From Chlamydiota bacterium (GTDB lineage Bacteria > Auribacterota > JACPWU01), in NCBI GenBank assembly GCA_016196885.1, contig JACPWU010000021.1, forward strand, positions 1-32,000: a stretch of 32,000 nt of DNA. Reading direction: 5' to 3'. This document shows positions 401 through 26,896 of this stretch, piece by piece. The position numbers and the translations under genes are program-made. Each line of letters begins with the position of its first letter. Position 1 is the stretch's first letter. The notes beneath the pieces were generated by a model that saw only the letters and a program-made list of their open reading frames with translations, was not told where the DNA came from and ran no database searches.

Positions 401-490
401 CAAAAGTTCAAAGGTTCAAAGGTTCAAAGGAAAAAAAATCCGAACTGCATCAACCTTTGAACTTTTGAACCTTTAAACCTTTGAACCTTT
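401..490. repeat. Periodic-arm hairpin A (8-nt unit) between frr and the intron-containing tRNA
   Basis: Left arm 401-430 reads caaaagttc/aaaggttc/aaaggttc/aaagg. Right arm 453-490 reads cctttgaa/cttttgaa/cctttaaa/cctttgaa/ccttt and is its complement. The loop is A-rich and contains AAAATCC (435-441). Confidence 0.85.
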
Positions 491-492
491 TT

Positions 493-1053
493 CTAAACTT
501 GTGCAAGTTCTTTTTCTTTATGTACTAAAATCTCATCTATTTTCTTAATAAAATCATCCGTCTTGACCTGAACCTCTTTTTCAATGCGAAAGAGATCGTC
601 TTCGGTAATTTTGCCCTCTTTCTGACCCTTCTTCACGAGTTCGTTCATTTCACGCCGGGTGTTTCTTAAATTGACACGGGCTTCCTCCGCCATGTTTTTC
701 ACCACCTTTTTAAGCTCGTTGCGGCGCTGCTCGCTCAACTCAGGCACTTGAATGCGAATGATTTTGCCTTCCAATCTAGGCACAAGACCTGATTCGTTTT
801 TGTTCAAGGCCTTCATCATTTCTTCAATGGCCGTCACATCCCAAGGCTGAATCACAAGGGTCCGATGCTCCGGAACGGTGATCCCAGCCAGTTCTTTCAA
901 TTTGGTGGGCGTTCCATAATAAGAAACCAGAATATTTTCAACCAAGGCAGGTGTCGCCCGTCCTGTACGCACCCCCGCCAACTCGACTTGAAAAAATTCA
1001 ATGGTTTTACCCATTTTATCTTTGATCTCTTTCAATACTTTTTCTTCTACCAT
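493..1053 (-). CDS. frr: Ribosome recycling factor
   Basis: 186 aa, typical RRF length and sequence (ELAGVRTGRATPALVENI, LSEQRRNELKK). ATG is preceded by GGGAGGG. It sits in the conserved rpsB-tsf-pyrH-frr order. Confidence 0.95.
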   Translation of the reverse strand: MVEEKVLKEIKDKMGKTIEFFQVELAGVRTGRATPALVENILVSYYGTPTKLKELAGITVPEHRTLVIQPWDVTAIEEMMKALNKNESGLVPRLEGKIIRIQVPELSEQRRNELKKVVKNMAEEARVNLRNTRREMNELVKKGQKEGKITEDDLFRIEKEVQVKTDDFIKKIDEILVHKEKELAQV

Positions 1054-1057
1054 AAAG

Positions 1058-1783
1058 TTATCCCTCCCGCACCAGGGTTCCTATTTGTTCTCCTAAAATG
1101 ACCTGCCTAAAATTAGTCGGACTCCACATATTGAACACAATAATAGGAATGTTGTTTTCCATGCACAAAGAAATGGCCGTCGCATCCATCACCTTCAGCC
1201 GCTTGTTCAACACCTCAATGTATTTTAATTCTTCATATTTAACCGCCTTGGGGTCTAAACGAGGATCCGCAGAATAGACGCCGTCCACCTTGGTGGCTTT
1301 TAAAATCACCTGGGCATTCATTTCACTGGCCCGAAGAGCGGCTGTGGTGTCTGTTGAGAAATAAGGATTGCCAGTCCCTCCGGCAAAAATGACCACCCTT
1401 CCTTTTTCCAAATGGCGCATGGCCCGTCTTCGAATGTAAGGCTCGGCAATTTTTGCCATTTCAACGGACGTTTGCAAGCGAGTTGTGACACCGCTTTTTT
1501 CAAGGGCATCTTGAAGAGCCATGCCATTGATCACGGTGGCAAGCATCCCCATGTAATCCGCCGTGGTTCGATCAATCCCGCTCGCACTTTCGCTCATTCC
1601 GCGAAAAATATTACCCCCTCCAATCACAATCGCAAGCTGAACACCCAGTTCTTTCACCTCTTTAACTTGCTGGGCAATGGTCAGAACGGCTTTGGGATCC
1701 ACACCATAGGACTTATCTCCCATAAGGGTTTCACCGCTGAGTTTTAAGATGACGCGATGGTATTTGGGAGTTGGCTTAGACAT
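1058..1783 (-). CDS. pyrH: UMP kinase
   Basis: 241 aa with amino-acid-kinase fold motifs ([36 protein letters not shown]). Located between tsf and frr. Confidence 0.95.
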
Positions 1784-1871
1784 ACGACGAAACCGAGTGA
1801 CAAACGACCTGGCTGCGCCTCAACCCAATGTCGAGACAGCGAACAACGAAAAACTGTTCAAAGACTGTTTT

Positions 1872-2471
1872 CTAAAGACTTTCACCAAGTTGATATCGAA
1901 TGAATCGGCGAAGGACCATGTTCTCACCCACTTCAGCAATTTTTGATTGAATCAATTGCTTGATGCAAATCGATGGGTCCTTAATAAAGGGCTGATCCAA
2001 GAGGCAAACCTCTTGATAGTGTTTTCCTAATTTTCCCTCCAAGATTTTCTCCAGAGCCTCAGGACTTTTACCCGAAAACTCCGCGCGAGCTTCTTTCTTC
2101 CAACCTTCTACCTTCTCGAGAGGGATCTCGTCCCTGGAAACATATAAAGGCGCCGGATGAGCGCCTGCAATTTGCAAAGCAACGTCTTTCGCCAATTCTT
2201 GAAAACCTTTGTTTCTCGCCACGAAATCCGTTTCGCAATTGAGTTCCAGGAGGACACCGATTTTTCCTCCCATGTGAATGTAAGAAAAAATGACGCCTTC
2301 CGTGGTGGCCCTTTGAGCCTTTTTCTGAGCGATGGCCGCTCCTTGACTTTTCAAAATCTCAATGGCGCCTGACAAATCACCTTTTGACTGGGCGAGGGCC
2401 TTTTTACAATCCATCACCCCTGCATTGGTTTTCTCGCGAAGCTCTTTGACCAAATCACTTGTGATCTGCAT
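1872..2471 (-). CDS. tsf: Elongation factor Ts (short form)
   Basis: 199 aa. The N-terminal UBA-like signature LVKELREKTNAGVMDCKKAL is present. AGGAG lies upstream of the ATG, and the gene directly follows rpsB. Confidence 0.93.
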   Translation of the reverse strand: MQITSDLVKELREKTNAGVMDCKKALAQSKGDLSGAIEILKSQGAAIAQKKAQRATTEGVIFSYIHMGGKIGVLLELNCETDFVARNKGFQELAKDVALQIAGAHPAPLYVSRDEIPLEKVEGWKKEARAEFSGKSPEALEKILEGKLGKHYQEVCLLDQPFIKDPSICIKQLIQSKIAEVGENMVLRRFIRYQLGESL

Positions 2472-2476
2472 GAAAC

Positions 2477-3235: not shown

Positions 3236-3264
3236 ACGATCCTCCTTTTGTTTCAAACAACTCA

Positions 3265-3345
3265 AAAATCCGAAACTTTCTGATTCTTTGAATATTTGAA
3301 TTTAGAATTTGTTTCGTGCTTCGGATTTCGTGCTTATTTTTAATT
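3265..3345. repeat. Periodic-arm hairpin B in the rpsB leader
   Basis: AAAATCCGAAAC (3265-3276) can pair with gtttcg..cggattt (3311-3328). The region has a 7-nt stutter (tctgatt/ctttgaa/tatttga/atttaga and tttcgtg/cttcgga/tttcgtg/cttattt). It is AT-rich, so the stem is weaker than in the other hairpins. Confidence 0.55.
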
Positions 3346-3369
3346 TTGTTCTTTCCCAAAAGCCTGACT

Positions 3370-3397: not shown

Positions 3398-3419
3398 GGC
3401 GAAAAGAGCACTTTCCAAT

Positions 3420-4091: not shown

Positions 4092-5772
4092 ACAATTTCC
4101 GATACAAGCCTTCTTTTTGAATCAGCTCATCATGCGTCCCCGTTTGAATCATCCGGCCCTGATTCAAAACCAATATTTGATGCGCGTTTCGAACCGTGGA
4201 CAAACGATGCGCAATCACGAGCACCGTGCGGCCCTCCATAAGCCTTGTTAAGGCCTCCTGAACGGACCTTTCCGACTGAGAATCTAAAGATGAAGTAGCC
4301 TCGTCCAAAATAAGAAGCCTGGGATTTTTCAAAATGGCCCGGGCAATTGCAAGCCGTTGTCTTTCTCCCCCCGAAAGCTTCACACCTCTTTCCCCCACCA
4401 AGGTGTCATACCTTTCAGGAAGCGCCATGATAAAATCGTGGGCATTGGCCGCTTGAGCTGCTTCTATGAGTTCACTAGAATTCATTTCGACACGACCATA
4501 AGCGATGTTGGCACGAACGGTGTCATTGAATAAAATGACCTCTTGAGTGACCAGGCCCATTAAACCTCTTAAAGATTTAAGCGCGATCGAACGAATGTCT
4601 TTTCCATCTATTTTAATTTCTCCCTGCTGGGGATCGTAGAAACGGGCAATCAAATTGGCCATGGTGGATTTTCCAGAACCACTGGGCCCGACCAGCGCCG
4701 TGATTTCTCCCGCCTTCATCTCAAAATGAATGTCTCTGAGAACCCAATCTTCTTCATATCGAAAAGCCAAATTTGAAAAGCGAATCCCTTCACGAATATC
4801 ACTCAGTTCAAAAGCACCCTTCTTGTCTCTAACCGCAGGGACTTCATCCAGAATTTCAAAAACTCTGACGCCCGCTGCATTGGCTTGTTGAACAAGGCTA
4901 TTGACCTTTCCTATTTTTTTGAAAGGTTCATAAATCAAATAAAGCGCTGTCATGAAAGAAAGAAATGTATCTAGACTCAAATGCCTGGCTCCATACCAAA
5001 AGCAAAAAGCTGCTCCGCAAGAAGCCACCACTTCAATGACGGGTCGGGTAAGCTCTGCCGCACGCACGGCATCCATCATGGATTTAAAGAAACGACGATT
5101 CTCTTGAGAAAACCGATTGATTTCATACTCTTCCATTGAAAAAGCCTTCACCACACGAATCCCACTGATCGTCTCATGTAAAATAGATGTTAAATCTCCG
5201 ACCTGCGTTTGGGCTTGGCGAGTTGCCTTTCGAACCCTTTTCCCGAATTTAACAATTGGATAAACGGCCAGGGGAAAAATAAACAAAGACATGCTCGCCA
5301 AAAAAGGGTCGAAATAAAAAAGGGTCCCCAAGAGTCCTAAAAGGCTTAAGGGTTCTTTCACCATATCTGTAATAGCGTTTGAAATCCCATACTGAATCAC
5401 AGACACATCATTGGTAACACGAGAAATGAGATGACCTGTTTTTCGATGCGAAAAAAAATCAAGCGACAAATCATGAAGATGACGGTACAAACGATCTCGA
5501 ATATCCGAAACAGCCTTTAGCCCCACCCAATTCATGTAATAGGCCTGCCCAAAATCTGAAAGTCCTCTCATCAAGAAAACAAGCAAGATCAAGCCTGGAA
5601 CCATAAAAAACATCGAGGGGCTCTTGCTTACAAAAGCCACTCTCAAAACAAATTTCAAAACCCACACAACCGCTGTATTAAAAATAGAAAAAAGGATCAT
5701 GCACAAAAAGGCCGTCGCTAAGCGAGGCCAATAGGGTTTTACAAATTGCAAAAGTCGTCTATACGTTGTCAC
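4069..5772 (-). CDS. msbA: ABC transporter permease/ATPase, MsbA-like lipid A exporter
   Basis: 567 aa. It has an N-terminal six-TM domain, Walker A GPSGSGKST, signature LSGGERQRLAIARA and Walker B LLILDEATSSLD. The GTG start overlaps the lpxB stop (GTGA). Confidence 0.82.
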   Translation of the reverse strand: MTTYRRLLQFVKPYWPRLATAFLCMILFSIFNTAVVWVLKFVLRVAFVSKSPSMFFMVPGLILLVFLMRGLSDFGQAYYMNWVGLKAVSDIRDRLYRHLHDLSLDFFSHRKTGHLISRVTNDVSVIQYGISNAITDMVKEPLSLLGLLGTLFYFDPFLASMSLFIFPLAVYPIVKFGKRVRKATRQAQTQVGDLTSILHETISGIRVVKAFSMEEYEINRFSQENRRFFKSMMDAVRAAELTRPVIEVVASCGAAFCFWYGARHLSLDTFLSFMTALYLIYEPFKKIGKVNSLVQQANAAGVRVFEILDEVPAVRDKKGAFELSDIREGIRFSNLAFRYEEDWVLRDIHFEMKAGEITALVGPSGSGKSTMANLIARFYDPQQGEIKIDGKDIRSIALKSLRGLMGLVTQEVILFNDTVRANIAYGRVEMNSSELIEAAQAANAHDFIMALPERYDTLVGERGVKLSGGERQRLAIARAILKNPRLLILDEATSSLDSQSERSVQEALTRLMEGRTVLVIAHRLSTVRNAHQILVLNQGRMIQTGTHDELIQKEGLYRKLYEVQFAS

Positions 5773-6899
5773 TCATTCACCCTTTTTAAAATAATCTCTG
5801 CAGCCCTCGCACTTGCCCCAGGCTCACCCAATTTCTGAAGAACTTCTCGCAAGGCTTGCCGAGTTTCATTCAAAACCTTTTCATTCGAAAGAAAATCCTT
5901 TGTCATTTGAGCCAAATGTTCGGATTTAAAATCCTCCTGCAAAAGCTCTGGAACAATTTTTTGGGCGGCCACCAGATTCACGAGTCCCACAAAAGGGACT
6001 TGAATCAAACGACGAATTAAAAAAGCCGTTATCCGCGAAACCCGGTAAAACACAATCATGGGAACACCGCAGTAGGCCGTTTCCAAGGTTGCAGTCCCAG
6101 AACAGACCCACGCAAATTGAGAAGCGAGAAGACATTCTCTCATACGGCCTCGATAAAGATGCATAAAATCCTCACCCTTCGTGCTTCGACGAATTTCCTC
6201 ATAAAGGTAATCCGTCGCACAAGGAACAAGAAAACATATTTTGGGAAACTCGCGCCTCATTTGGCGGGCCGCCTCTAGGAGCACGTCCCAATGACGATGA
6301 ACTTCGTTCACGCGGCTGCCGGGCAAAATAGAAATTCTAGGATAAAATTTTTCTAGCTCCTTTGACATCCCTGAGGATGTTTGTTTTTCCCCTTCATCCA
6401 CCAGCGGATGACCGACAAAATCAACCGCCATGTTGTTTCGCTCATAAAAATCTTTTTCAAAAGGTAAAATCACCAACATGCGGTCTATGATTTTCTTCAT
6501 GAGCCCTAAACGCCTCTTTCCCCAAGCCCAAACTTGAGGACTCACATAATAAATGACTCGCACCTTTTTCCGGTGTGCCCTTTTCGCAAATCTCAAATTA
6601 AATCCTGGAAAATCAATCAACACAACTGCATTGGGTTTCCACTCATCGAGCGTCCTTGAAAGTTCTCTAAAAACACGTCTGAACTCGCGATAATGTTTCA
6701 CCACCTCCAAAAGTCCGATCACGGCCCACCGGGTCATGTCCTCCAAAATCTGAACCCCATTCTGACGCATCAAGGACCCACCCACACCCAAGAGTTCGAC
6801 GGAAGGATCTTTTTGAATGAGCGCCTGGGCAAGCTGTGCACCCATTTTATCTCCCGAGGGCTCTCCTGCTAAAATCATGATTCTAGGATTTGAGTTCAT
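5769..6899 (-). CDS. lpxB: Lipid-A-disaccharide synthase
   Basis: 376 aa with the N-terminal ILAGEPSGDKMGAQL motif and a GT-B fold length typical of LpxB. It lies within an lpx cluster. Confidence 0.9.
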   Translation of the reverse strand: MNSNPRIMILAGEPSGDKMGAQLAQALIQKDPSVELLGVGGSLMRQNGVQILEDMTRWAVIGLLEVVKHYREFRRVFRELSRTLDEWKPNAVVLIDFPGFNLRFAKRAHRKKVRVIYYVSPQVWAWGKRRLGLMKKIIDRMLVILPFEKDFYERNNMAVDFVGHPLVDEGEKQTSSGMSKELEKFYPRISILPGSRVNEVHRHWDVLLEAARQMRREFPKICFLVPCATDYLYEEIRRSTKGEDFMHLYRGRMRECLLASQFAWVCSGTATLETAYCGVPMIVFYRVSRITAFLIRRLIQVPFVGLVNLVAAQKIVPELLQEDFKSEHLAQMTKDFLSNEKVLNETRQALREVLQKLGEPGASARAAEIILKRVNE

Positions 6900-6913
6900 G
6901 ATAAAACCAGTGC

Positions 6914-7005
6914 AAAATGAAAAGTGTAAAATTAAAAATAAAGAAAAAAAGGTTTACTGAAATCGTTCTCAATTTTTCATTCTTAATTTTTCATTCTTAA
7001 TTTCT
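6914..7005. repeat. Periodic-arm hairpin C (AT-rich); right arm overlaps the oxidoreductase 3' end
   Basis: Left arm reads aaaatga/aaagtgt/aaaatta/aaaataa. The right arm is a 14-nt duplication, ttcattcttaattt x2 (6969-7005). The arms are only partly complementary. Confidence 0.5.
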
Positions 7006-7904
7006 TTCAACACTTCCATCGCCACCTCTAAAGCCATTTTTCCATGCTCCCCCGACACCAGAGGGTTTTTCGCATGACGCACGCAATCCATAAAAGAAGC
7101 GATCTCCAACTTTAAGGGTTCGGCCTTTTCAAATTTAATATTTTTCCAAGAAATTTTCCCATTTTCCTTGTGATAAATCTTCCCCTCCTGCCTTAAATAA
7201 TCCAAAGAAATGTAGGCGTCCTCTTGAAAAACCCGCACCTTTCTCATGCGCTCCACAGAAACCCGGCTCGTGGTCAAATTGGCAATACAGCCATTTTCAA
7301 ATTCCAATCGGGCATTGGCAATGTCTTCAAAGGCGCTGAGGACGGGAACTCCCACGGCACGAATTTCTCTTAAAGGGGAAGGGGTCAACTGCAAAATCAC
7401 ATCAATGTCATGAATCATCAAATCCAAAACAACCCCCACATCCGTTCCCCGCTCAGGAAAAGGGCTCAGGCGGTGACACTCGATAAAGCGCGGCGAGGTC
7501 AGAATTTTCTGGAGCGCCTGAAAGGCGGGATTGTAACGCTCAATATGCCCTACTTGGAGAATCAGTCCCTTTTGCTGAGCCTTTTGGATCAGTGCCGCTG
7601 CCTGTTCTACCCTTTGGGCAATCGGTTTTTCCACAAGGACATGAATCCCCCGGTCCAAAAGAAATTCTGCCACTTTGAAATGATCCACCGTCGGAACTGC
7701 CACACTCGCCAAATCAATTCCCGAAGGCAACCCTTCCAAACTTTGTAAAGGCTGCGCATGATAGCGATGGCCCCACTTAGAAACCTTCTCCCAATCAAGG
7801 TCCACAAGCGCGACCAATTCAACATCTGAAAGCTCAGAATAAATTCGGGCATGTTCTTTACCCAAATAACCAACCCCTACGACCACCGCTTTAAGTTTTT
7901 GCAT
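6969..7904 (-). CDS. Gfo/Idh/MocA-family NAD(P)-dependent oxidoreductase
   Basis: 311 aa with an N-terminal Rossmann motif VVGVGYLGKEH and the EKP motif (VLVEKPIA) of the family. It is embedded between lpxI and lpxB. Confidence 0.85.
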   Translation of the reverse strand: MQKLKAVVVGVGYLGKEHARIYSELSDVELVALVDLDWEKVSKWGHRYHAQPLQSLEGLPSGIDLASVAVPTVDHFKVAEFLLDRGIHVLVEKPIAQRVEQAAALIQKAQQKGLILQVGHIERYNPAFQALQKILTSPRFIECHRLSPFPERGTDVGVVLDLMIHDIDVILQLTPSPLREIRAVGVPVLSAFEDIANARLEFENGCIANLTTSRVSVERMRKVRVFQEDAYISLDYLRQEGKIYHKENGKISWKNIKFEKAEPLKLEIASFMDCVRHAKNPLVSGEHGKMALEVAMEVLKEIKNEKLRMKN

Positions 7905-8730: not shown

Positions 8731-8780
8731 CTTAATTTTTTGTGACAATCCTTGAGGAGGTTTCGGTAAGCCGTATGAAT

Positions 8781-8855
8781 AGGGGCAAGGGTCAAGAGTC
8801 AAGAAAAAACACTAAATTGATTATTCTTGACCCATGACCCATGACCCTTGCCCCT
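8781..8855. repeat. Periodic-arm hairpin D (7-nt unit)
   Basis: Left arm reads aggggcaagg + gtcaaga x2. Right arm reads tcttgac/ccatgac/ccatgac/ccttgcccct. The outer 14 bp are perfectly complementary, and the loop is A-rich. Confidence 0.9.
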
Positions 8856-8892
8856 CGCAAGAGAAATACAAACAACACTTCACCCTACAACA

Positions 8893-9663: not shown

Positions 9664-9687
9664 GATTTAAACCCTTTAAGAAAAGCC

Positions 9688-9760
9688 CACAGTCCACGGT
9701 CCATAGTCGATAGAAAAATAAAAAATCCCTTCGAACTATTGACCATGGACTATGGACTGT
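9688..9760. repeat. Periodic-arm hairpin E (7-nt unit); right arm supplies the last fabZ codons
   Basis: Left arm reads cacagtc/cacggtc/catagtc/gatag. Right arm reads ctattga/ccatgga/ctatgga/ctgt. The loop contains AAAATCC (9722-9728). Confidence 0.88.
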
Positions 9761-10205
9761 TATGTTCCAGCTCCACCAAACCAAACATCAAATCTGCCTC
9801 GGCCACCAATTGATCTTGGACAAAGGCACTTCCTTTAACCATCCCTGTCTTACTGCGAGCCCGAAGCAGTTCAACTTCAAAACGCAATTGATCGCCTGGG
9901 ATCACCGTCTTTCGAAATCTTGCATTGTCAATCGCCGTAAAATAAGCAAGTTTGCCTTTCGCCTCAGCCCTGCTTAAAAGCATGACCCCCGCCACTTGGG
10001 CCATGGCTTCCAAAATCAATACACCCGGCATCACGGGATGCCCAGGGAAGTGACCTACAAAGAAACTTTCAGTGATCGTCACATTTTTCAAACCCACGGC
10101 CTTTGTGTCTGTCATTTCAAGCATCCGATCTACCAAGAGAAAAGGATAGCGATGAGGCAAAACTTTCTGAATGGCCACCGTATCTAAAATACCATCCGCC
10201 ATCAT
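9750..10205 (-). CDS. fabZ: 3-hydroxyacyl-ACP dehydratase FabZ
   Basis: 151 aa with motifs [12 protein letters not shown] and [27 protein letters not shown] lies upstream of the ATG. Confidence 0.95.
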
Positions 10206-12120: not shown

Positions 12121-12122
12121 GA

Positions 12123-12202
12123 AATACCGTTTCTCGTTTATCGTTGATCGTTTATCGTTAATGGAAATTCTATATTAACGTTTAACGTTCAACGTCTAAC
12201 AG
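12123..12202. repeat. Periodic-arm hairpin F (7-nt unit)
   Basis: Left arm 12123-12161 reads aataccgtt + tctcgtt/tatcgtt/gatcgtt/tatcgtt + aa. Right arm 12176-12202 reads ttaacgt/ttaacgt/tcaacgt/ctaacag. Confidence 0.9.
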
Positions 12203-12205
12203 CTT

Positions 12206-15062: not shown

Positions 15063-15084
15063 GACTCCGCCCCCTCTTTTGAAT

Positions 15085-15244
15085 CCAAGGACAGAGATAG
15101 AAAATGAGAATCGAGACGCGACAGGTTGGCCCAGATGGACTTGAAGAAAACGTAGGCATACCTGCAAGGTACGTCGAGGCTTTCTGAAAGTCCAGATGGG
15201 CCAAGATGTCGCGTCGAATTCCATTTTCTATCTCTCTCCTTGGG
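15085..15244. repeat. Long imperfect inverted repeat (arms about 58 nt) between dnaB and bamA
   Basis: Left arm 15085-15143 reads ccaaggacagagatagaaaatgagaatcgagacgcgacaggttggcccagatggactt. The reverse complement of right arm 15187-15244 reads ccaaggagagagatagaaaatggaattcgacgcgacatcttggcccatctggactt. The outer part has a 7-nt stutter (agataga/aaatgag/aatcgag/acgcgac). Confidence 0.85.
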
Positions 15245-16583
15245 TTGAACTATGATTTTCAAAACGTGTGTACTCACTGATGAAGGTTAATTTTAAATCT
15301 CCCGTCGGCCCATTCCTCTGTTTGGCAATCATGATGTCGGCCTCGCCGGGAGAATCTTCTGGATTATAATACTCTCTTCTTAAAAGAAGCACCACTGTAT
15401 CAGCATCCTGTTCAATGGCCCCCGATTCTCGCAAATCCGAAAGCCGAGGTTTATTCTCAGGACGATTCTCAGCCGCCCGATTCAACTGAGAGAGAACGAG
15501 CACTGGAACATTCAACTCTCGGGCCAGGGCCTTTAAAGAACGGCTGATCTCTGAAATTTCCTGCTGCCGATTTTCAGATTTATTGCTGGAAGTCTGCATC
15601 AATTGAAGATAATCAATCACCAAAAGACGAATGTCATAGGCCGCCTTAAACCGCCGGGCCTTGGCCCTCAGCTCCGTTACGGAAAGACCCGGCGTATCAT
15701 CAATGTAAAGCGGGGCCTCGGAAAGCATGCTGGCCGAAGTCACCAATTGCGACCAATCTTTATTCGCAAGAAATCCCCTTCGAACATGATGAAGATTCAC
15801 CCGGGCATGAGAACATAAAAACCGCTGCACCAATTGCTCCTTGGACATTTCAAGGCTGAAAATCCCAACCGGCATTTTCTCCACCACGGCCACATGCTCC
15901 GCAATGTTCAGCGCAAAAGCCGTTTTCCCCATCGAGGGCCTGGCCGCAATGACAATCATGTCCGAAGCCTGAAGCCCCGAGGTCCGCTCGTCAAAATCTG
16001 CAAAACCGGTTGAAAGCCCGAGAAGCGCCCCCTTTTTCTGAAAGGCCCGGTCAATCGCCTCCATGCTCTGACGCACCAAATCCTTGAAGGGGAGATTGGA
16101 AGTGATTTGAGATCGCTTCTCGACAATGTCAAAAATCTTTTGCTCGGCCACATCCAAAAGCTTATCTACGGATTCTGGACCCTCATAACATTTGGAAATA
16201 ATCTCGCTCGCGGTATGAATTAAATTTCTCAAAACCGCTTTTTCGCGAACAATGCTCACATATTCTTCAACATGCGACGAGGAAGGCACCGCTTGTGGCA
16301 AGAGGGCAAGCGTACTTGCACCTCCCACCATCTCAATTTCATTCGCCTTTGAGAGAAATTCCGTCAAGGTAATCAGATCCAAAGGCCGATTGTGATCGTA
16401 AAGTTGAATCAGGGCATTAAAAACTTTCCGATGAGATTCCAGATAAAAACTATCAGGTTTCAACTGAGAAATCACCGTCGGAATGACCTCTTGATCAATC
16501 AAAATCGAGCCGAGAACGCCCATTTCGGCTTCGAGATTTTGAGGAGGTAATTTCTCGATGGGAACACCTGCAACTGACTTCAT
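15228..16583 (-). CDS. dnaB: Replicative DNA helicase DnaB
   Basis: Has the N-terminal PPQNLEAEMGVLGSIL motif, Walker A ARPSMGKTAFALN and the RecA-like C-terminal domain motifs. The start is placed at ATG 16583; the ORF-track TTG at 16610 overlaps rplI. Confidence 0.94.
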   Translation of the reverse strand: MKSVAGVPIEKLPPQNLEAEMGVLGSILIDQEVIPTVISQLKPDSFYLESHRKVFNALIQLYDHNRPLDLITLTEFLSKANEIEMVGGASTLALLPQAVPSSSHVEEYVSIVREKAVLRNLIHTASEIISKCYEGPESVDKLLDVAEQKIFDIVEKRSQITSNLPFKDLVRQSMEAIDRAFQKKGALLGLSTGFADFDERTSGLQASDMIVIAARPSMGKTAFALNIAEHVAVVEKMPVGIFSLEMSKEQLVQRFLCSHARVNLHHVRRGFLANKDWSQLVTSASMLSEAPLYIDDTPGLSVTELRAKARRFKAAYDIRLLVIDYLQLMQTSSNKSENRQQEISEISRSLKALARELNVPVLVLSQLNRAAENRPENKPRLSDLRESGAIEQDADTVVLLLRREYYNPEDSPGEADIMIAKQRNGPTGDLKLTFISEYTRFENHSSTQGER

Positions 16584-17037: not shown

Positions 17038-17056
17038 AATTGCTTATCTCCTTAAA

Positions 17057-17123
17057 ACAGCGGTCAGCATTCAGTGTTCAGCAAAAAAATAAACTCCCTA
17101 TAAAACTGAACGCTAAACGCTGT
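17057..17123. repeat. Periodic-arm hairpin G (7-nt unit)
   Basis: Left arm reads acagcgg/tcagcat/tcagtgt/tcagc. Right arm reads ctgaacg/ctaaacg/ctgt. The loop is A-rich. Confidence 0.85.
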
Positions 17124-17126
17124 CTT

Positions 17127-17429: not shown

Positions 17430-17446
17430 AACTTCCCCTTTATTAT

Positions 17447-17530
17447 GTACCGATGTGCCGATGTGTCAATGCGCCGATGTGCCGATGAAATCAATCATTT
17501 TTTGACATCGGTACATTGGCACATCGGCAC
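17447..17530. repeat. Periodic-arm hairpin H (8-nt unit)
   Basis: Left arm reads ccgatgtg/ccgatgtg/tcaatgcg/ccgatgtg/ccgatg. Right arm reads gacatcgg/tacattgg/cacatcgg/cac. Confidence 0.9.
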
Positions 17531-17537
17531 AATTTAC

Positions 17538-17963: not shown

Positions 17964-18027
17964 ACACACCTCCTTTTCCGAGCCGGCGGCTTTTAATATT
18001 TAACAGTTATACGCCCTCGATGGCCCT

Positions 18028-18136
18028 GGTAGTCGCCCGATTCATCGGGCAATCCCTTGTAGTCACCCGATTCATCGGGCAAGATCCATGCAAGGGGCAA
18101 GGGACACGGCCCCATCCATGGGGCGACTGCAAATTC
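18028..18136. repeat. REP/MITE-like palindromic element, copy 1 (first module tandemly duplicated)
   Basis: Reads ggTAGTCGCCCGATTCATCGGGCAA, then a duplicated module gTAGTCaCCCGATTCATCGGGCAA, then TCCATGCAAGGGGCA..GGCCCCATCCATGGGGCGACTgCAAATTC. Sub-hairpins are gcccgat-tca-tcgggc and gccccat..atggggc. Termini tagtcgcc / ggcgact are inverted. A homolog in opposite orientation lies at 25270-25343. Confidence 0.85.
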
Positions 18137-18151
18137 TTCAAAAGCGCTTGA

Positions 18152-18433: not shown

Positions 18434-18451
18434 AACAAACCTCCTTTAAAT

Positions 18452-18536
18452 GAGCGTACAGCGTTGAGCGGACAGCGTACAGAAAAACAAATCCGCTCCC
18501 TGTAAACTAAACGCTAAACGCTGTCCGCTGAACGCT
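18452..18536. repeat. Periodic-arm hairpin J (7-nt unit); right arm overlaps the pth 3' end
   Basis: Left arm reads gagcgta/cagcgtt/gagcgga/cagcgta/cag. Right arm reads ctgtaaa/ctaaacg/ctaaacg/ctgtccg/ctgaacg/ct. The loop contains AAATCC (18489-18494). Confidence 0.9.
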
Positions 18537-19122
18537 TATTTTTCTCTTTCGACTGAGCGTCACTCAAACATTTCTCAGCGGTATCAAGACCTTCCCCCAC
18601 AAAGGCCATGACAAATTTGCAGGCCTTCTGAACCATTTTCTCAGTGCTGTCTAATTCGGACAAAGAAAAGGGACTCAACACATGCTTGGCATAATCTTCC
18701 TCTTTGTCCTCGGGAAGACCTACCCCCATGCGAAGCCTTGGAATTTCAAGGGTTGCACATGATTCCAAAATCGAAAGAAGACCCTTATGCCCGCCGGAAC
18801 TCCCTCGGGGCCGAAAACGCAAATGGCCCAGCTTCAAAAAAACATCGTCTAGTATAACCAAACTCTCTTGGCCAGACAATTTAAAATATTCCAGAATCTT
18901 TCGAAACGCCCGGCCGCTGTGGTTCATGTAAGTGGCGGGTTTGACCAAAAGAAAATCCTGACCCGCTCTCTTTCCCTCAGCAACCAGGCTTTCCCATCTA
19001 GATTCACGACGGAAACGGATGTCACATGCCCTTGCCAATTCATCCATCACCCAAAATCCGACATTGTGCCGTGTCGCGTGATATTTTTCGTCAGGATTGC
19101 CCAGGCCCACCAACATCCTCAT
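18514..19122 (-). CDS. pth: Peptidyl-tRNA hydrolase
   Basis: Has the motif MLVGLGNPDEKYHATRHNVGF. The start is trimmed to ATG 19122, which has GGGAG upstream. The ORF-track TTG at 19185 lies inside hairpin K. Confidence 0.92.
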   Translation of the reverse strand: MRMLVGLGNPDEKYHATRHNVGFWVMDELARACDIRFRRESRWESLVAEGKRAGQDFLLVKPATYMNHSGRAFRKILEYFKLSGQESLVILDDVFLKLGHLRFRPRGSSGGHKGLLSILESCATLEIPRLRMGVGLPEDKEEDYAKHVLSPFSLSELDSTEKMVQKACKFVMAFVGEGLDTAEKCLSDAQSKEKNKRSADSV

Positions 19123-19123: not shown

Positions 19124-19244
19124 ATGACCAATCTCCCATTTCCAATGACAAATAAATGACCAACACCCCATTTCCAACGATTCAAGATGTGGGAAATGAG
19201 TCATTGGAGAATTGGAAATTAATTTGACATTTGTTATTGGTCAT
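19124..19244. repeat. Periodic/scrambled-word hairpin K
   Basis: Left arm reads atgaccaat..catttccaatgac..atgaccaac..catttccaac. Right arm reads gtgggaaatgagtcattggagaattggaaat...ttattggtcat. The arm ends are complementary and the interior reuses the same words in a different order. Confidence 0.7.
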
Positions 19245-19252
19245 TGATCGAT

Positions 19253-19993: not shown

Positions 19994-20002
19994 AACCCCT
20001 CC

Positions 20003-20938: not shown

Positions 20939-20955
20939 ATCACACCTTTTAAAAT

Positions 20956-21046
20956 AGAAGTCAGAATTCAGAAGTCAGAATAATAAGGAGGTTATTTTAT
21001 TCTGAATTCTGTCTTCTTACTTCTGTTTTCTGACTTCTGAATTCTG
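20956..21046. repeat. Periodic-arm hairpin L (7-nt unit); right arm overlaps the glmU 3' end
   Basis: Left arm reads agaagtc/agaattc/agaagtc/agaataa. Right arm reads ttattct/gaattct/gtcttct/tacttct/gttttct/gacttct/gaattct. Confidence 0.9.
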
Positions 21047-22297
21047 TTGTAATATCTTCGCCGGCACTCCCACCACCACAGCTCCATCTGGAATATTTTT
21101 CCCGCGTGTCACCACAGCACCCGCTCCCGTCACCGCCCTTTTCCCCATCTGCACAGGTGCCACAAAAATGGTCCCGCTTCCGACAAAAGCCCCTTCATCA
21201 ATCTGAGTTGTGTGTTTGGCCTCCCCATCATAATTGGCCGTGATCGTTCCTGCGCCTACATTCACATGAGGACCCACTTGGGCATTCCCCAAATAGGTCA
21301 AATGCTTTGCCTTCGTCCCCTCTCCTATTTGAGAAGCCTTTACCTCCACAAAATTTCCAATCTCCACGCGGTCGGATAAATTTGTCCCCCCGCGAATATG
21401 GGTAAAGGGTCCAATCTCGCATGAGCGACCGATCTTCACCTCTCCTTCAATGACCGTAAAAGGATGAATCACCGAATCTTGTCCAATCTCTACCGTTTCA
21501 TCAATGAAGGTAGAGGCAGGATCTATCAGCGTCACTCCCTGATACATCAAGTTTTCCAGCACTCTTTGACGCAAGACTTTTTCGGCTTGCGCCAACTGAG
21601 CCCTGGAATTGATGCCCATGATCTCATGGGCATCATCCACACAATACGCGGATATGGGCTTATTTTGAAGAGCTAAAATCTGAATCGCATCGGTCAAATA
21701 AAGCTCATTTTTCTCCGGATGAATTTGAATTTCATTCAGCGCATCCTGAAGGGCCGGCCAATCAAAACAATAGGTTCCGGAGTTAATTTCCTCAATGGCC
21801 TTTTCGTAAACCGTTGCGTGAGCCTCTTCTACAACACTAATCACTTCATCGTTACCACCGCGGACAATACGGCCATAACCGGTTGGATTAGGAAGCCTCC
21901 CTGTCAAAATCGCTCCATAGTATTGATCTTGCTCATGTTTTTCAACAAATTTTTTCAAAGTTTCTAAACGAAGGAGTGGGGCATCCGCACATAAAATTAA
22001 AACATCCCCCTGCCATTTTTTTAAAAAGGACCGAGCTGCCAGCACGGCATGCGCTGTCCCGAGGGGTTTTTCTTGAACTGCAAATTCAAAACCGGCGGGT
22101 AACTCTTTCTCAAGGGCCTCCCCTTGAGGACTCACAACCACAATTTTTTTCTCCAGAGGTAAACCCCCACACAGCTCTGCACTACGGCGAATCAAAGACT
22201 TTCCACATACTTGATGAAGCACCTTGGGAATAGAAGATTTCATCCTCTTGCCCTCTCCCGCCGCTAAAATAATGGCGATCATGCCTTTTTTCTCCAT
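21017..22297 (-). CDS. glmU: Bifunctional GlcNAc-1-P uridyltransferase / GlcN-1-P acetyltransferase
   Basis: 426 aa with the N-terminal LAAGEGKRMKSSIPKVLH nucleotidyltransferase motif and a C-terminal LbH acetyltransferase domain. It sits in a glmU-prs-ctc-pth order. Confidence 0.9.
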   Translation of the reverse strand: MEKKGMIAIILAAGEGKRMKSSIPKVLHQVCGKSLIRRSAELCGGLPLEKKIVVVSPQGEALEKELPAGFEFAVQEKPLGTAHAVLAARSFLKKWQGDVLILCADAPLLRLETLKKFVEKHEQDQYYGAILTGRLPNPTGYGRIVRGGNDEVISVVEEAHATVYEKAIEEINSGTYCFDWPALQDALNEIQIHPEKNELYLTDAIQILALQNKPISAYCVDDAHEIMGINSRAQLAQAEKVLRQRVLENLMYQGVTLIDPASTFIDETVEIGQDSVIHPFTVIEGEVKIGRSCEIGPFTHIRGGTNLSDRVEIGNFVEVKASQIGEGTKAKHLTYLGNAQVGPHVNVGAGTITANYDGEAKHTTQIDEGAFVGSGTIFVAPVQMGKRAVTGAGAVVTRGKNIPDGAVVVGVPAKILQQNSEVRKQK

Positions 22298-22427
22298 GAA
22301 TCACTCCGAAAGTTGGCTAAAATTAGGATTTCGAATTTCGTGTTTATTCCTAAATGGCATACCTCAAATATTTTTCACACTTTATGCTTCTCTCAACCCC
22401 TACTTCTCCTTTATACTCTCTTTCCAC

Positions 22428-22498
22428 TGCCCGGTGGTGTAATGGTAACACAGCAGTTTTTGGAGCTGCTTTTCTAGGTTCGAATCCTAGCCGGGCAG
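22428..22498 (+). tRNA. tRNA-Gln(UUG)
   Basis: Reads TGCCCGG-TG-GTGT-AATGGTA-ACAC-A-GCAGT-TTTTGGA-GCTGC-TTTT-CTAGG-TTCGAAT-CCTAG-CCGGGCA-G. The acceptor stem is a perfect 7 bp and the anticodon is TTG. No CCA is encoded. Confidence 0.9.
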
Positions 22499-22502
22499 CT
22501 TA

Positions 22503-22541
22503 AATACCGTTGATCGTGCAACGTTGTTCGTTCTTCGTTAA
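22503..22541. repeat. Solitary 39-nt heptad array (homolog of the left arm of hairpin F)
   Basis: Reads aataccgtt + gatcgtg/caacgtt/gttcgtt/cttcgtt + aa. It has the same length, ends and register as 12123-12161. I found no complementary arm nearby. Confidence 0.7.
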
Positions 22542-22650
22542 AAGCATGACCCTTCCTCGAAATACAAAATTAGGCCTTAGAATATATCTTAAAATAGAAA
22601 GATCGTCGAATTGAAAAAATCAGAGAAAAGCTCTTTGGGAGGGAAATTTT

Positions 22651-23037: not shown

Positions 23038-23047
23038 CGTCCTCACC

Positions 23048-23917: not shown

Positions 23918-24035
23918 GATGCGTCGCCCTTCATTTTATTTTTTCAATCTCTTTGACCTTGTTTCTCAATTTTTCATTCGCCTTACAATTGTTTCCGGGC
24001 TGCTCACCCCCTGGAGGAGGTGAACAGCCTGTCCG

Positions 24036-24072
24036 AAAAAAAGCCCCTGCTCATTTTAAGATAAGCAGGGGC
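24036..24072 (-). terminator. Rho-independent terminator after the small basic-protein gene
   Basis: Minus strand reads GCCCCUGCU-uaucuuaaaaug-AGCAGGGGC followed by UUUUUUU. The stem is a perfect 9 bp. This is the only classical stem-plus-U-tract terminator I see in the minus-strand array. Confidence 0.8.
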
Positions 24073-24095
24073 TCAAAAAAACGAAGAAAGACCCA

Positions 24096-24182
24096 TTACT
24101 TCTTATGACGATCCCTTCGACTTCTTTTCTTTCTTTTGTGCTTATTCATCTTTGCTTTTCTTTTCTTGCGACCGCAAGGCAT
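24096..24182 (-). CDS. 28-aa highly basic protein, bS22-like (AURKAIP1/COX24-type small ribosomal protein)
   Basis: This ORF is not in the ORF track because it is under 60 aa. Manual translation gives MPCGRKKRKAKMNKHKRKKRSRRDRHKK*. AAGGAG lies 6 nt upstream of the ATG and a terminator follows. The pattern K-M-x-x-HKRKKR-x-R-x-x-RHKK matches my recollection of bacterial bS22 sequences. Confidence 0.55.
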   Translation of the reverse strand: MPCGRKKRKAKMNKHKRKKRSRRDRHKK

Positions 24183-24200
24183 GATTTTCTCCTTTTTAAG

Positions 24201-24278
24201 CTTTTGAACTTTGTATTGAATAAGATCCTTCGCTCTCACTCAGGATGACACCCCGTGTCCCCCTTGAACCTTCCTTTG
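24201..24278. repeat. Direct repeat copy a (about 78 nt), immediately 3' of hisG
   Basis: Reads cttttgaactttgtattgaataagatccttcgctctcactcaggatgacaccccgtgtcccccttgaaccttcctttgg. It aligns end to end with 25162-25239, with roughly a dozen differences. Confidence 0.85.
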
Positions 24279-24279
24279 G

Positions 24280-25149: not shown

Positions 25150-25161
25150 TCCCGTCTCCCT

Positions 25162-25239
25162 CTTTTGAACCTTTATTGAATGAGATCCTTCGCTTCACCC
25201 AGGATGACACCTCGTGTCACCTTTAAACTTTCTTTTAGG
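25162..25239. repeat. Direct repeat copy b (about 78 nt), immediately 5' of hisG
   Basis: Reads cttttgaacctttattgaatgagatccttcgcttcacccaggatgacacctcgtgtcacctttaaactttcttttagg, in the same orientation as copy a. Confidence 0.85.
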
Positions 25240-25367
25240 CATATGCACTTGATTCCCCTCAGATAGAAAGAATTTGTAGTCGCCCCATTTATGGGGCAGC
25301 CTTGTGCCCCTTGCATGGATTGCCCGATGAATCGGGCGACTACTAGGGGAATCAAGTGCATATGCCT
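25237..25367. repeat. Perfect 23-bp palindrome enclosing REP/MITE-like element copy 2 (25270-25343)
   Basis: Outer arms aggcatatgcacttgattcccct (25237-25259) and aggggaatcaagtgcatatgcct (25345-25367) are exact reverse complements. Between them lies the inverted homolog of the 18028-18136 element. Confidence 0.88.
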
Positions 25368-26062
25368 ACTTTCTTTTTATAAAAATCACAACAGGCGCGA
25401 ATCACACACCTGGGGCATCTGGGGTTTTTAACCTTGCAGGTGACTCGGCCATGTTTCATCAATTGAGAATGCAAACTCAATACCAAATATCGTGGCGCAA
25501 CACAATGAATAACTTCTTGAACCGCTTCCAAAGGGGCATGATTCCACACCCATCCCAACCTTTTTGAAACCCGCTCTACATGAGTATCTATGGGCATGAC
25601 AGGCCGATTCAGGGAATACAAAAGAACATGGCTGGCCGTTTTCACCCCAATCCCTTTTAGAGAAAGAAGATATTTTAAAGCCTGGGCTTCCTCCATTTCT
25701 CTCAAGAAATCCAGTGACAACTCTTTTCGGTCCCGATAAATACGTCCTAAAATTCTTCTGATTCTTAAAGCCTTGGTGTGATTCAAACCGCCTTTTTGAA
25801 TGGCCGAAGAAATTTCTCCCACGGGAGCTGCCATCAAACCTTCCCAATTCCTGAATTTCTTTTTCAGCCTTTCAAAAGCCTCTTGGGAGTGAAGAGGTGT
25901 GGTGTTCTGCGCAAGAATGGTGAACACCAGTTCGTCAAGAGGACCTTTTTTTCCGTCCCGAACCAGACGTCCATGCTTTTCTTGCAGCAAATCATGGACT
26001 TTCATCACATTCATTCGAATGCGCTTTTGATCCTCTGGGGTCAGTTCTAAATTCATAAGCAC
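25352..26062 (-). CDS. Endonuclease III-like HhH-GPD base-excision repair protein with a 4Fe-4S cluster
   Basis: Has the HhH-GPD fold motifs LDELVFTILAQNT and LKGIGVKTASHVLL. The C-terminal C-x6-C-x2-C-x5-C (CKVKNPRCPRCVIRACC) indicates an Fe-S cluster. The start may be GTG 26062 or ATG 26056. Confidence 0.8.
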   Translation of the reverse strand: MLMNLELTPEDQKRIRMNVMKVHDLLQEKHGRLVRDGKKGPLDELVFTILAQNTTPLHSQEAFERLKKKFRNWEGLMAAPVGEISSAIQKGGLNHTKALRIRRILGRIYRDRKELSLDFLREMEEAQALKYLLSLKGIGVKTASHVLLYSLNRPVMPIDTHVERVSKRLGWVWNHAPLEAVQEVIHCVAPRYLVLSLHSQLMKHGRVTCKVKNPRCPRCVIRACCDFYKKKVGICT

Positions 26063-26070
26063 CTGAAAAT

Positions 26071-26107
26071 ACAGTCGACAGTCGATAGACCGTGGACTAT
26101 GGACTGT
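26071..26107. repeat. Compact periodic hairpin E2, same word family as hairpin E; supplies the last purN codons
   Basis: Reads acagtcg/acagtcg/atagacc/gtggact/atggact/gt. The 18-mer ccgtggactatggactgt matches 9743-9760 (ccatggactatggactgt) at 17 of 18 positions. Confidence 0.85.
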
Positions 26108-26711
26108 TTTTTATAACCACCCTTCTCCCCTTAACCAAAATCCTTCCCTCTGCAATCAATTTCAGGGCCTCTGGATATAGACGATGTTCCGCCTTTTGAA
26201 GGCGCGCATGCAACGTCTCTGGCGTGTCTTCATCCAACACCTTCACGGCCTCCTGAAGGACAATAGGCCCCGTGTCCAATCCCTCATCCACAAAATGAAC
26301 CGTGCAGCCTGTGATCTTCGCTCCTGCCTCCAAGGCCTGCCGCCAAGCGTCAAGGCCCCGAAAAGCTGGGAGGAGCGATGGATGAATGTTGAGAATTTTA
26401 CCTTTATAGGCCCTGAAGAAATCACCTTTTAAAACCCGCATGTAACCTGCCAGCACCACCCATTCGACCCCATGATTTTGAAGGGCGTGAATGTAATCAG
26501 CCTCTATAGAAGGCTCTAAATAAGTTTTAAATTTTCCGGGAGGAAGATAAAGATAAGGAATTTTATGAATTCTCGCCTTCTCTAAAATGGGGGCTTTTTC
26601 AACATCGGAAATGACAAGTACGATTTGGGCCTGGAGTTCTCCCTTTTGAATGGCCTCAAAAAGAGCCTCGAAATTCGTCCCTCGTCCCGAACCTAAAATG
26701 CCAATCTTCAA
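26097..26711 (-). CDS. purN: Phosphoribosylglycinamide formyltransferase
   Basis: 204 aa with motifs IGILGSGRGTNFEAL and NIHPSLLPAFRG. The start codon is TTG, with AAGGTGGG upstream. Confidence 0.92.
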   Translation of the reverse strand: MKIGILGSGRGTNFEALFEAIQKGELQAQIVLVISDVEKAPILEKARIHKIPYLYLPPGKFKTYLEPSIEADYIHALQNHGVEWVVLAGYMRVLKGDFFRAYKGKILNIHPSLLPAFRGLDAWRQALEAGAKITGCTVHFVDEGLDTGPIVLQEAVKVLDEDTPETLHARLQKAEHRLYPEALKLIAEGRILVKGRRVVIKNSP

Positions 26712-26798
26712 GAAGACCCACCTTTTCTGCTTGTTTTCTCATCAAAACACCTGTAAGAATTTAAAGAAATGCCCGTTTGAAGTCAAGGGAGGAGAAAT

Positions 26799-26896
26799 CT
26801 CAAATCCAAATATCAAAAATCAAAGATCAAAATTAAGGAAGAATTCAATTTAATGGACTCCTTAATTTTGGATTTTGAATTTTGGACTTTGATTTT
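26799..26896. repeat. Periodic-arm hairpin N in the divergent purN / response-regulator spacer
   Basis: Left arm reads ctcaaatc/caaatatc/aaaaatc/aaagatc/aaaatta/agga. Right arm reads tccttaa/ttttgga/ttttgaa/ttttgga/ctttgat/ttt. Confidence 0.85.

Follow-up and report, generated by a model that had tools for sequence, protein, structure and literature searches.

Dispersed palindromic elements with heptad-array arms probably occupy the gene boundaries of an Auribacterota contig and resemble the heptamer-repeat hairpins of other bacteria

What are the stem-loops that separate the genes of a long bacterial operon, when each arm of the stem is a stuttering array of 7-nt or 8-nt words and the word changes from one gene boundary to another? 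The question is raised by the window analysed here, a stretch of 32,000 nt of contig JACPWU010000021.1 from a metagenome-assembled genome (MAG) labelled Chlamydiota bacterium (Auribacterota), in which nearly all genes lie on the minus strand across 493-26711. We suggest, with moderate confidence, that the hairpins are small non-coding dispersed palindromic repeat elements with tandem-array arms, mostly of 7 nt and sometimes of 8 nt, which are prone to slippage and tolerated at gene ends. The window would then represent a lineage-specific bloom of elements similar to the short tandemly repeated repetitive (STRR) sequences of cyanobacteria.

The periodicity was detected independently of folding. 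Autocorrelation of the 2,372 nt of spacer DNA peaked at lag 7 (z = 10.1), lag 8 (z = 3.5) and lag 14 (z = 4.0), while the coding DNA of the window had no peak at these lags, which bears out the period-7/8 signal of the original prediction, made from the sequence alone. Tandem Repeats Finder (TRF) detected paired arrays of period 7, 8 or 14 at nine of the loci noted there (395-490, 8781-8855, 9687-9758, 12128-12200, 17445-17531, 18451-18536, 20956-21048, 26071-26085 and 26795-26896). Array-bearing loci number about 12 in the 32 kb, all at gene boundaries, and further ones lie on the same contig. A strict detector of inverted tandem-array pairs found five pairs in the 32-kb window versus three in the 1.16 Mb of control DNA (dnaB neighbourhoods from 80 other bacteria). 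An independent Logan assembly (L082) is 100% identical over 11.8 kb, several hairpins included, and the hairpins are therefore not an assembly artefact.

Inverted repeats were located by a Smith-Waterman inverted-repeat scan, and stem stability was expressed as the z-score of the minimum free energy (MFE) against dinucleotide-shuffled sequences. Significant structure was found for hairpins A (392-492; z -10.0), D (8775-8860; -6.7), E (9685-9760; -4.6), F (12121-12205; -2.2 to -2.35), G (15063-15227; -11.2 for 15070-15245), I (17050-17126; -6.3), H (17440-17537; -7.3), J (18434-18540; -5.35), L (20945-21050; -4.1), M (26057-26110; -2.8 to -4.1) and N (26790-26900; -3.8). Hairpins with tandem arms had been claimed at 14 loci, and ten of these are both tandem-armed and significantly structured (z about -2.3 to -10). 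The claim failed at 3265-3345 (z -1.2), 6914-7005 (z -0.2) and 19124-19244 (z -0.8), where the structure is not significant, and in part at 15085-15244, which is a very strong hairpin (z about -11) with arms of unique, non-tandem sequence. The statement that essentially every long spacer consists of one inverted repeat is contradicted by the spacers 1784-1871, 22298-22650 and 23918-24279; the unequal numbers of units in the two arms were confirmed.

The elements are not private to single loci. The word does differ at almost every locus at face value, as originally stated, but several words recur: heptads of GTC type, 5'-(RGTCNAY)n-loop-(RTNGACY)n-3', are present at four window loci (9685-9760, 26057-26110, 8781-8855 and 20956-21046) and AGCGTTY heptads at two (17050-17126 and 18434-18540), the CGTTNAT word of 12121-12205 recurs in the 22298-22650 spacer (80% over 40 nt), and the AACCTTTG word turns up again at a distance of about 38 kb on this contig and after tRNA-Lys in a public contig, the NCBI MAG contig JACOUD010000001.1 (GCA_016178005.1), to which window positions 353-32000 are identical. 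Hairpins M and E are 92% identical over 24 nt. BLAST of the spacers against those of syntenic relatives detected whole elements in common. In relative L083, three GTC-type elements (578, 8448 and 16356) share 79-88% identity over about 97 nt and have common ATGAAAA...TTTTCAT ends, and the elements at 12874 and 18314 are 89% identical over 84 nt in inverted orientation. The hairpin of the L083 rpsF/ssb spacer matches that of the rplI/dnaB spacer in relative L086 (84% over 115 nt). Hairpin E of the window (9664-9765) aligns with three L083 elements in the opposite orientation relative to transcription, among them the one at 16356. The word of hairpin A, with a similar loop, is found in L083 at 2315-2420 and 2585-2694, and the word family of hairpin N at 7417, 12874 and 18314. 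The shared whole elements include asymmetric loops of 20-30 nt, at 79-89% identity across junctions and genomes. One and the same element, loop included, can thus stand at several loci and in more than one genome, in either orientation, and the original argument against a transposing element is not supported, given these near-identical copies at non-orthologous junctions.

Hairpins without tandem arms are dispersed as well. A unit GTAGTCGCCCGATTCATCGGGCAAT, similar to repetitive extragenic palindromic (REP) sequences, is present three times in the window and further times elsewhere on the contig. The REP-like palindrome GTAGTCGCCCGATTCATCGGGC...GCGACTAC was detected at 18029-18083 (plus strand) and 25319-25343 (minus strand), in L087 at 10928 and in L089 at 10947; this family has GTAG...CTAC ends and at least five copies, and is distinct from the tandem-armed hairpins.

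Comparison with the syntenic relatives L083 (79% identity in BamA), L085 and L086 (both 77%) demonstrated that presence or absence of an element at a given junction changes between relatives. In the order window, L083, L085 and L086, the rplI/dnaB spacer measures 13, 192, 17 and 177 nt, the dnaB/bamA spacer 165, 2, 28 and 1 nt (1-28 nt in the relatives), the fabZ/lpxA spacer 86, 3, 5 and 5 nt, and the rpsR/rplI spacer 89, 83, 18 and 18 nt. L083 has hairpins of the same kind, while L085 and L086 are almost free of period-7 arrays and have spacers of 18-47 nt with no hairpin at rpsF/ssb, ssb/rpsR and rpsR/rplI. Even the window and L083 have an element in common at no more than about 3 of 16 junctions. 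The orthologous spacers vary in length, array word and presence, and one half of what the original prediction had named as counting against it is found here, the same junctions in L085 and L086 being without structure.

Some elements share a loop core and differ in their arms. Seven of them, three from the window (E, I and J) and four from L083, have the core AGTTT..ArGrA..T-rich..TTTCT, with AGTT...TTTCT invariant in their alignment, and their arm words differ (GTCNAYR, AGCGTTY or ACTTACT). In the alignment-based fold of the seven, 10 of 24 stem pairs keep pairing despite changes on both sides. At the pth/rpsF junction, hairpin J of the window and the orthologous L083 element (6422-6512) share the core, and the L083 arms are made of ACTTACT and are still complementary. 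Copy number, word and even period change very fast, and the arms stay largely complementary.

The placement relative to genes is regular. The first base of a hairpin falls at or within the stop codon of the preceding gene, and 10-25 nt separate its end from the next start codon, so that the Shine-Dalgarno sequence stays accessible. The stop codons of purN, fabZ and pth are the TAG of a heptad (the first heptad of hairpins M and E for purN and fabZ, and the array of hairpin J for pth), the stem begins 0-5 nt from the stop codon after dnaB, rpsR, glmU and ompH, and C-terminal protein tails are encoded by the 5' arm of hairpin L and by the 14-mers at 6966-7003. The elements occupy the least harmful positions and often supply the upstream stop codon.

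The GTC-type family extends far beyond the window. Metagenome contigs were searched for the exact pattern AGTCNAYRGTCNAYRGTC-N15-45-GACYRTNGACYRTNGAC, and matches to the GTC-type hairpin were detected in at least 120 contigs, with a chance expectation, by our own arithmetic, far below 1. The hosts include Omnitrophota (L129), Sediminibacterium, Paludibacter, a Bacteroidales MAG and Gemmatimonadales (L092). Among the matches listed, host GC content ranges from 31 to 75%, the heptads follow the profile R(A 0.72)-G-T-C-N-A-Y, an arm holds about 4.5 of them, the median loop length is 15 nt, and the positions G2, T3, C4 and A6 are 94-99% conserved, also in units beyond the searched part. In the same matches, 137 hairpins have 5'-RGTCNAY polarity and none the reversed polarity; for about 17 of the 137 the search pattern had played no part in the selection. 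Watson-Crick pairing at the variable heptad positions was 0.73 between a hairpin's own arms versus 0.55 when arms were swapped between loci, suggesting that the arms are related beyond the shared word.

Among 84 GTC-type hairpins in 80 loci of this set, 34 lie within long open frames. According to Pfam, in-frame insertions affect AcrB, ValRS, a LeuC-type aconitase, HemB, TsaD, a Mur ligase, a GT4 glycosyltransferase and a glyoxalase-MBL protein, and the inserted peptides resemble KQSTVHSPPSTVKNKSVDHGPSTVDH. The Omnitrophota ValRS orthologues (alignment of P0121-P0188 and L129) have 5-6 hypervariable insertion hot spots, filled or empty depending on the orthologue and carrying repeat-derived peptides, and because of these insertions the proteins range from 861 to 1008 aa. 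Many other Omnitrophota proteins may be similarly affected. In two Omnitrophota strains, L129 and L212, whose flanking DNA is 97-98.6% identical (regions 1170-1560 and 4310-4660, respectively), one in-frame valS site holds 3-4 octamers of CCCCAGTG in L129 versus (CCACAGT)4 heptamers in L212, a second site holds inserts of 124 nt versus 83 nt, and L212 additionally has (GCTACGA)3. Separately, multi-copy heptad arrays of diverse words were observed near dnaB in L027, L028, L029, L041 and L071, which represent Methylomirabilis, a Bacillota MAG, Desulfobacterales and other Deltaproteobacteria MAGs, and BMS3Abin03.

How would such elements arise and persist? In the explanation that we favour, replication slippage would expand, contract and homogenise the arrays, 7 nt having been suggested as the favoured unit in published work. 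Complementarity of the arms would be kept by hairpin-templated repair, by selection or by both, and spread to new sites would proceed via some copying or transposition mechanism. Since they lie inside long operons, the elements would be transcribed into stem-loops of 20-40 bp, which plausibly act as exonuclease barriers or RNase III sites, by analogy with REP, enterobacterial repetitive intergenic consensus (ERIC) and Correia elements. Such an effect on RNA would be a consequence or a co-option rather than the reason for the existence of the elements; with the structures missing from sister genomes, it cannot be essential. Several points weigh against this explanation. Slippage alone does not explain the strict polarity and the GTC..A conservation of the GTC-type family across 31-75% GC. 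Among the listed matches the loops are unrelated between metagenome contigs, unlike those of a classical miniature inverted-repeat transposable element (MITE). The approximately 51 kb of contig examined contained neither a transposase gene nor any other gene for mobilisation. Neither a target-site duplication nor a clean empty site is demonstrable at the DNA level, BamA identity to the closest relative being only 79%. Finally, the weak sense bias in G:U pairs (43:24) means that the hairpins may be under constraint at the RNA level.

That last point belongs to a reading in which the stem-loops are selected RNA punctuation, needed between the cistrons of very long operons, with the sequence free to drift and the stem kept; RNase III processing, segmental mRNA stability and translational uncoupling were the proposed roles. 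We consider this unlikely. The hairpins do lie within co-directional essential operons, between the stop codon and the next ribosome-binding site, the compensatory arm changes at 10 of 24 stem pairs are what this reading expects, and effects on stability or coupling were suggested for STRR hairpins (PMC2670836). Hairpins A (-50 versus -39 kcal/mol), I (-32.7 versus -18.6) and E (-25 versus -17) fold much better in sense than in antisense, and G:U pairs number 43 in sense versus 24 in antisense, but this bias is weak and limited to some hairpins, and the antisense strand of F, H and L folds better. L085 and L086 have the identical gene order without the hairpins, and the small fraction of junctions that the window shares with L083 points in the same direction. 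The same family occurs in either orientation and inside coding sequences, and punctuation cannot apply to the copies that lie inside genes. The position after stop codons, together with U-runs in some loops, could also suggest unusual intrinsic terminators or attenuators, which we regard as extremely improbable. The terminator scan of the window rejected the classical terminator reading, in agreement with the original prediction: no hairpin scored as a classical terminator, none has the GC-rich stem with a U-tract 3' of it, and the hairpins are located inside operons of essential genes. The only convincing canonical terminator, a 14-bp stem followed by a T-run (24074-24041, minus strand), stands elsewhere in the window, after a 28-aa open reading frame (ORF).

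The remaining two readings concern the origin of the arrays. The view preferred in the original prediction was a purely local origin, each hairpin arising independently by slippage and inversion, with no movement. The part of it that concerns turnover holds: arrays turn over fast in situ, the arms are unequal, the arm words at pth/rpsF differ from those of L083, words differ among most window loci, and loops differ between metagenome contigs. However, whole elements with asymmetric loops recur at different junctions and in different genomes, and non-tandem hairpin families are dispersed as well, so that local origin is already contradicted for several families and, as a general account, appears very improbable. 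At the other extreme, dedicated sequence-specific machinery (a heptad-reading DNA binder, a transposase or an enzyme adding heptads to DNA ends) would make or target the polar GTC-type arrays, the other words being diverged products. The exact pattern in at least 120 contigs of hosts across phyla, the near-invariant G2, T3, C4 and A6, the 137:0 polarity, and arms that are only 73% complementary at the variable positions, as if two arrays had been written from one 'grammar', are consistent with this reading. It is nevertheless doubtful in our estimate: no candidate gene was identified, half of the window arrays are without GTC, heptad words are diverse and GTC is not enriched in the 80 control loci, and a scan of a viral collection gave 1 match versus 0 and 0 for two control words, with too little power. 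We give a similarly low probability to the stronger statement that the GTC-type hairpins are the footprint of one undescribed sequence-specific process acting across phyla, which could be hairpin-targeting mobile DNA or an enzyme adding heptads to both 3' ends of a break. With such an enzyme, polarity, variable loops and unequal arms would follow because heptad-extended break ends are joined; arrays could be written intergenically and in frame into essential genes of Omnitrophota/PVC (Planctomycetes-Verrucomicrobia-Chlamydiae), Bacteroidota, Gemmatimonadota and others, and the same machinery would have produced the other words of the window as well as the cyanobacterial STRRs.

Dispersed, slippage-prone elements being our preferred explanation, the individual copies in the window can be described in the light of it; all are on the minus strand unless noted. 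Hairpin A directly follows the frr stop codon and consists of (AAAGGTTC)n and (GAACCTTT)n octamers (TRF period 8) around the loop GATGCAGTTCGGATTTTTTTT, with an MFE of -50 kcal/mol; a second copy stands 3' of tRNA-Lys in the public contig. We also observed that the tRNA-Gln of L083 is flanked by two A-type elements in inverted orientation (2315-2420 and 2585-2694) and that the window tRNA-Gln (22428-22499) has no such flanking elements. Hairpin D, in the lpxA/lpxI spacer, pairs (GGGTCAT)n with (CTTGACC)n, and the same junction in L083 carries a GTC-type element too. Hairpin E pairs (AGTCCAT)n with (ATGGACY)n around the loop core AGTTCGAAGGGATTTTTTATTTTTCT. Hairpin F, in the ompH/lpxD spacer, is formed by (AACGTTR)n and (AACGATN)n arrays (TRF). 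Hairpin G, between dnaB and bamA, is a near-perfect palindrome of 165 nt and of unique sequence, with an MFE of -96 kcal/mol; it is intergenic because the true bamA start is at 15062 (P0001, a 762-aa protein).

Hairpin I, in the rpsR/rplI spacer, is built of AGCGTTY heptads around the core AGTTTTATAGGGAGTTTATTTTTTT, and hairpin J of AGCGKWY heptads around the same core. The loop cores at 17083-17107 and 18481-18508 (minus strand) contain the Shine-Dalgarno-like AGGGAG followed by possible TTG-initiated mini-ORFs, which run through the 3' arm and end just ahead of the Shine-Dalgarno sequence of the next gene. Judged from these motifs, the core could be a translational-coupling device; against this, the core is oppositely oriented in three L083 copies. 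Hairpin H, in the ssb/rpsR spacer, consists of (CCGATGTG)n and (CACATCGG)n octamers (TRF period 8). A sigma-70-like promoter, TTGACA-16-CATAAT (11/12 consensus), was noted in its 3' arm (17469-17442, minus), facing rpsR. Hairpin L has a 5' arm of (AGAAGTC)n that forms the glmU 3' end and its stop codon (TRF). Hairpin M is of GTC type, with a 4-nt loop and without the core. Hairpin N lies in the divergent spacer between purN and a sigma-54 activator gene, has no assigned strand, and pairs (AAAATCN)n with (NGATTTT)n (TRF).

Other repeats accompany the tandem-armed hairpins. Two 14-nt tandem arrays (TRF) at 6909-7003 span the GFO C-terminus and stop codon and form no hairpin (z -0.2); both the C-terminal tail of the protein and its stop codon are array-encoded. 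The rpsF/ssb spacer (17990-18140) is structured (z -3.3) and contains two 30-nt tandem units (TRF period 30) of the REP-like dispersed repeat GTAGTCRCCCGATTCATCGGGCAAT. A hairpin of 138 nt in the ogg/hisG spacer (25215-25352; MFE -45.8 kcal/mol, z -2.9), absent from the original prediction, carries the GTAGTCGCCCGATTCATCGGGCAAT unit, with the repeat copy at 25319-25343. On the plus strand, a single-arm (AGGGTCC)3 array (28083-28104; TRF) lies in frame in the sigma-54 activator gene, in the linker preceding the helix-turn-helix domain. A motif of about 60 nt, GACACGrGGTGTCATCCTGrGTGArrGCGAAGGATCTyATTCAATA, occurs twice on the minus strand, 5' of a small ORF (24259-24190) and 5' of hisG (25218-25150), and has no Rfam family match; its first copy lies within 112 nt that share 81% identity with the L083 hisG/ispE spacer. 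The small ORF (24182-24096, minus; MPCGRKKRKAKMNKHKRKKRSRRDRHKK) has a Shine-Dalgarno sequence and encodes a K/R-rich peptide of 28 aa, the terminator at 24074-24041 lying downstream. The peptide has no NCBIfam match, and we take it to resemble the small basic ribosomal proteins.

In the direction of transcription the gene order is purN, ogg, hisG, ispE, spoVG, glmU, prs, rplY, pth, rpsF, ssb, rpsR, rplI, dnaB, bamA, ompH, lpxD, lpxC, fabZ, lpxA, lpxI, GFO, lpxB, msbA, DUF374, rpsB, tsf, pyrH and frr. The nearest relatives of the DnaB protein are Candidatus Omnitrophota (55-58% identity), while BamA has its relatives among MAGs labelled Chlamydiae and in Ca. Theseobacter (Auribacterota, PVC group); in the BamA search the next match below 100% identity was at 79%, with nothing between. 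The domain search detected a sigma-54 activator, and cyanobacteria are not known to have the sigma-54 activator system. A cyanobacterial host, suggested by a group I intron in a tRNA, was ruled out by gene content and nearest relatives. At the Rfam gathering threshold the only matches in the window were the group I intron and tRNA-Gln, and no hairpin matched any family. Window positions 1-352 differ from the public contig, which at that end (L089 10690-10760) has an intact tRNA-Lys(UUU), then the second A-type hairpin and then tRNA-Glu. The window end has instead the group I intron (Rfam; 128-363, minus) and the 3' half of a tRNA, with an acceptor strand, GCGCCCC, that is not complementary to GAGCCGC of the 5' half. 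Apparently this end results from a chimeric join, or from an alternative way of assembling the DNA at a conserved tRNA half.

The locus provides a dense and clean example of heptamer hairpins outside the cyanobacteria. It displays the supply of stop codons, a loop core kept under changing arm words, and gain and loss between syntenic relatives. Heptamers are reported to be the commonest long bacterial simple repeat, and three observations from beyond the window make the question of their origin and function testable: one heptad word of strict polarity in hosts of 31-75% GC, frequent in-frame elements in essential genes, and whole arrays that differ in word and period between strains with 98% identical flanks. 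The in-frame elements matter for protein annotation in Omnitrophota and other uncultured groups, where they explain some of the length variation. If the elements are only selfish, slippage-prone repeats, their value lies in annotation, strain typing and the understanding of assembly breaks; if a dedicated enzyme stands behind them, a new class of DNA-writing or mobile system would be at hand.

Although the original prediction knew of no repeat class with these properties, and our literature search by repeat strings returned nothing relevant, intergenic heptamer-repeat hairpins have been published, and the architecture therefore belongs to a described, if unexplained, class (PMC2670836, PMC4692102, PMC4679880). 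The STRRs of filamentous and heterocystous cyanobacteria are usually 7-bp repeats that form intergenic hairpins, have no established function and were suggested to affect transcript stability or translational coupling (PMC2670836). The elements here share with them the 7-bp unit, the intergenic position inside operons and the inverted arrays forming a hairpin between genes, as in hupS-hupL (PMC2670836). Unlike STRRs, they reside in a PVC-group MAG (Auribacterota/Omnitrophota-like), the arrays include octamers, a loop core is common to several elements, and elements supply stop codons; the GTC word family is also found in frame in genes of Omnitrophota and other contigs, in the window only as the single-arm array. 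They are not STRRs in the strict sense, the host being no cyanobacterium and the words only similar to STRR1-3. The STRR words, which we take to be CCCCAGT, CAACAGT and TTGGTCA, would share a CAGT/GTC core with the arrays here. CCCCAGT(G) and CCACAGT arrays are present at Omnitrophota loci.

Heptameric repeats are over-represented in the intergenic DNA of Xanthomonas and Nostoc (Nostoc word GGGGAYT), and the GGGAATC heptamers of Xanthomonas often form inverted pairs and vary between close relatives (PMC4692102). The elements here are likewise intergenic, form stem-loops from plus- and minus-strand pairs and vary between close relatives (PMC4692102). TAACTGA heptamer arrays are known from Beggiatoaceae, Cyanobacteria and Bacteroidetes (PMC4679880); they are mostly direct repeats placed shortly before start codons. 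The inverted pairs described here instead follow closely after stop codons. Heptanucleotides are, in the part of Mrazek 2007 cited in PMC4679880, the most abundant long simple repeats, with polymerase slippage proposed. The elements here resemble these simple repeats in their patchy occurrence across phyla, with slippage the proposed generator (PMC4692102, PMC4679880), and differ from the Xanthomonas, Nostoc and TAACTGA repeats in their words and in having no G-quadruplex potential.

REP sequences, bacterial interspersed mosaic elements (BIMEs) and REPINs are mobilised by RAYT transposases (PMC3116915). Like them, our elements are short dispersed extragenic palindromes at gene 3' ends in operons, transcribed as hairpins and expanded in a lineage-specific manner, and the non-tandem GTAGTCGCCCGATTCATCGGGC...GCGACTAC family also starts with GTAG and ends with CTAC. 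Unlike REP, whose sequence is conserved genome-wide, the arms here are tandem arrays, and no RAYT gene was found in the approximately 51 kb of contig examined. The in-frame copies in ValRS, TsaD, HemB, AcrB and other proteins recall the Rickettsia palindromic elements, which are reported (Ogata et al. 2000) to be inserted in frame in conserved genes at tolerated surface positions. Those elements measure 100-150 bp, are conserved in sequence, are known only from Rickettsia and are not built of heptads. Correia/NEMIS, ERIC and MITE-like elements are, like ours, small non-autonomous inverted repeats co-transcribed with their neighbours; they have fixed terminal inverted repeats and target-site duplications and, unlike ours, lack tandem-array arms. 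Correia/NEMIS and ERIC hairpins are RNase III substrates or stability determinants. With 7-nt arrays above chance, a dispersed and mostly intergenic distribution, inverted pairs and variability between relatives, the elements of this window would, by analogy, be the PVC-group counterpart of the cyanobacterial STRR hairpins and of the heptameric simple-repeat pairs.

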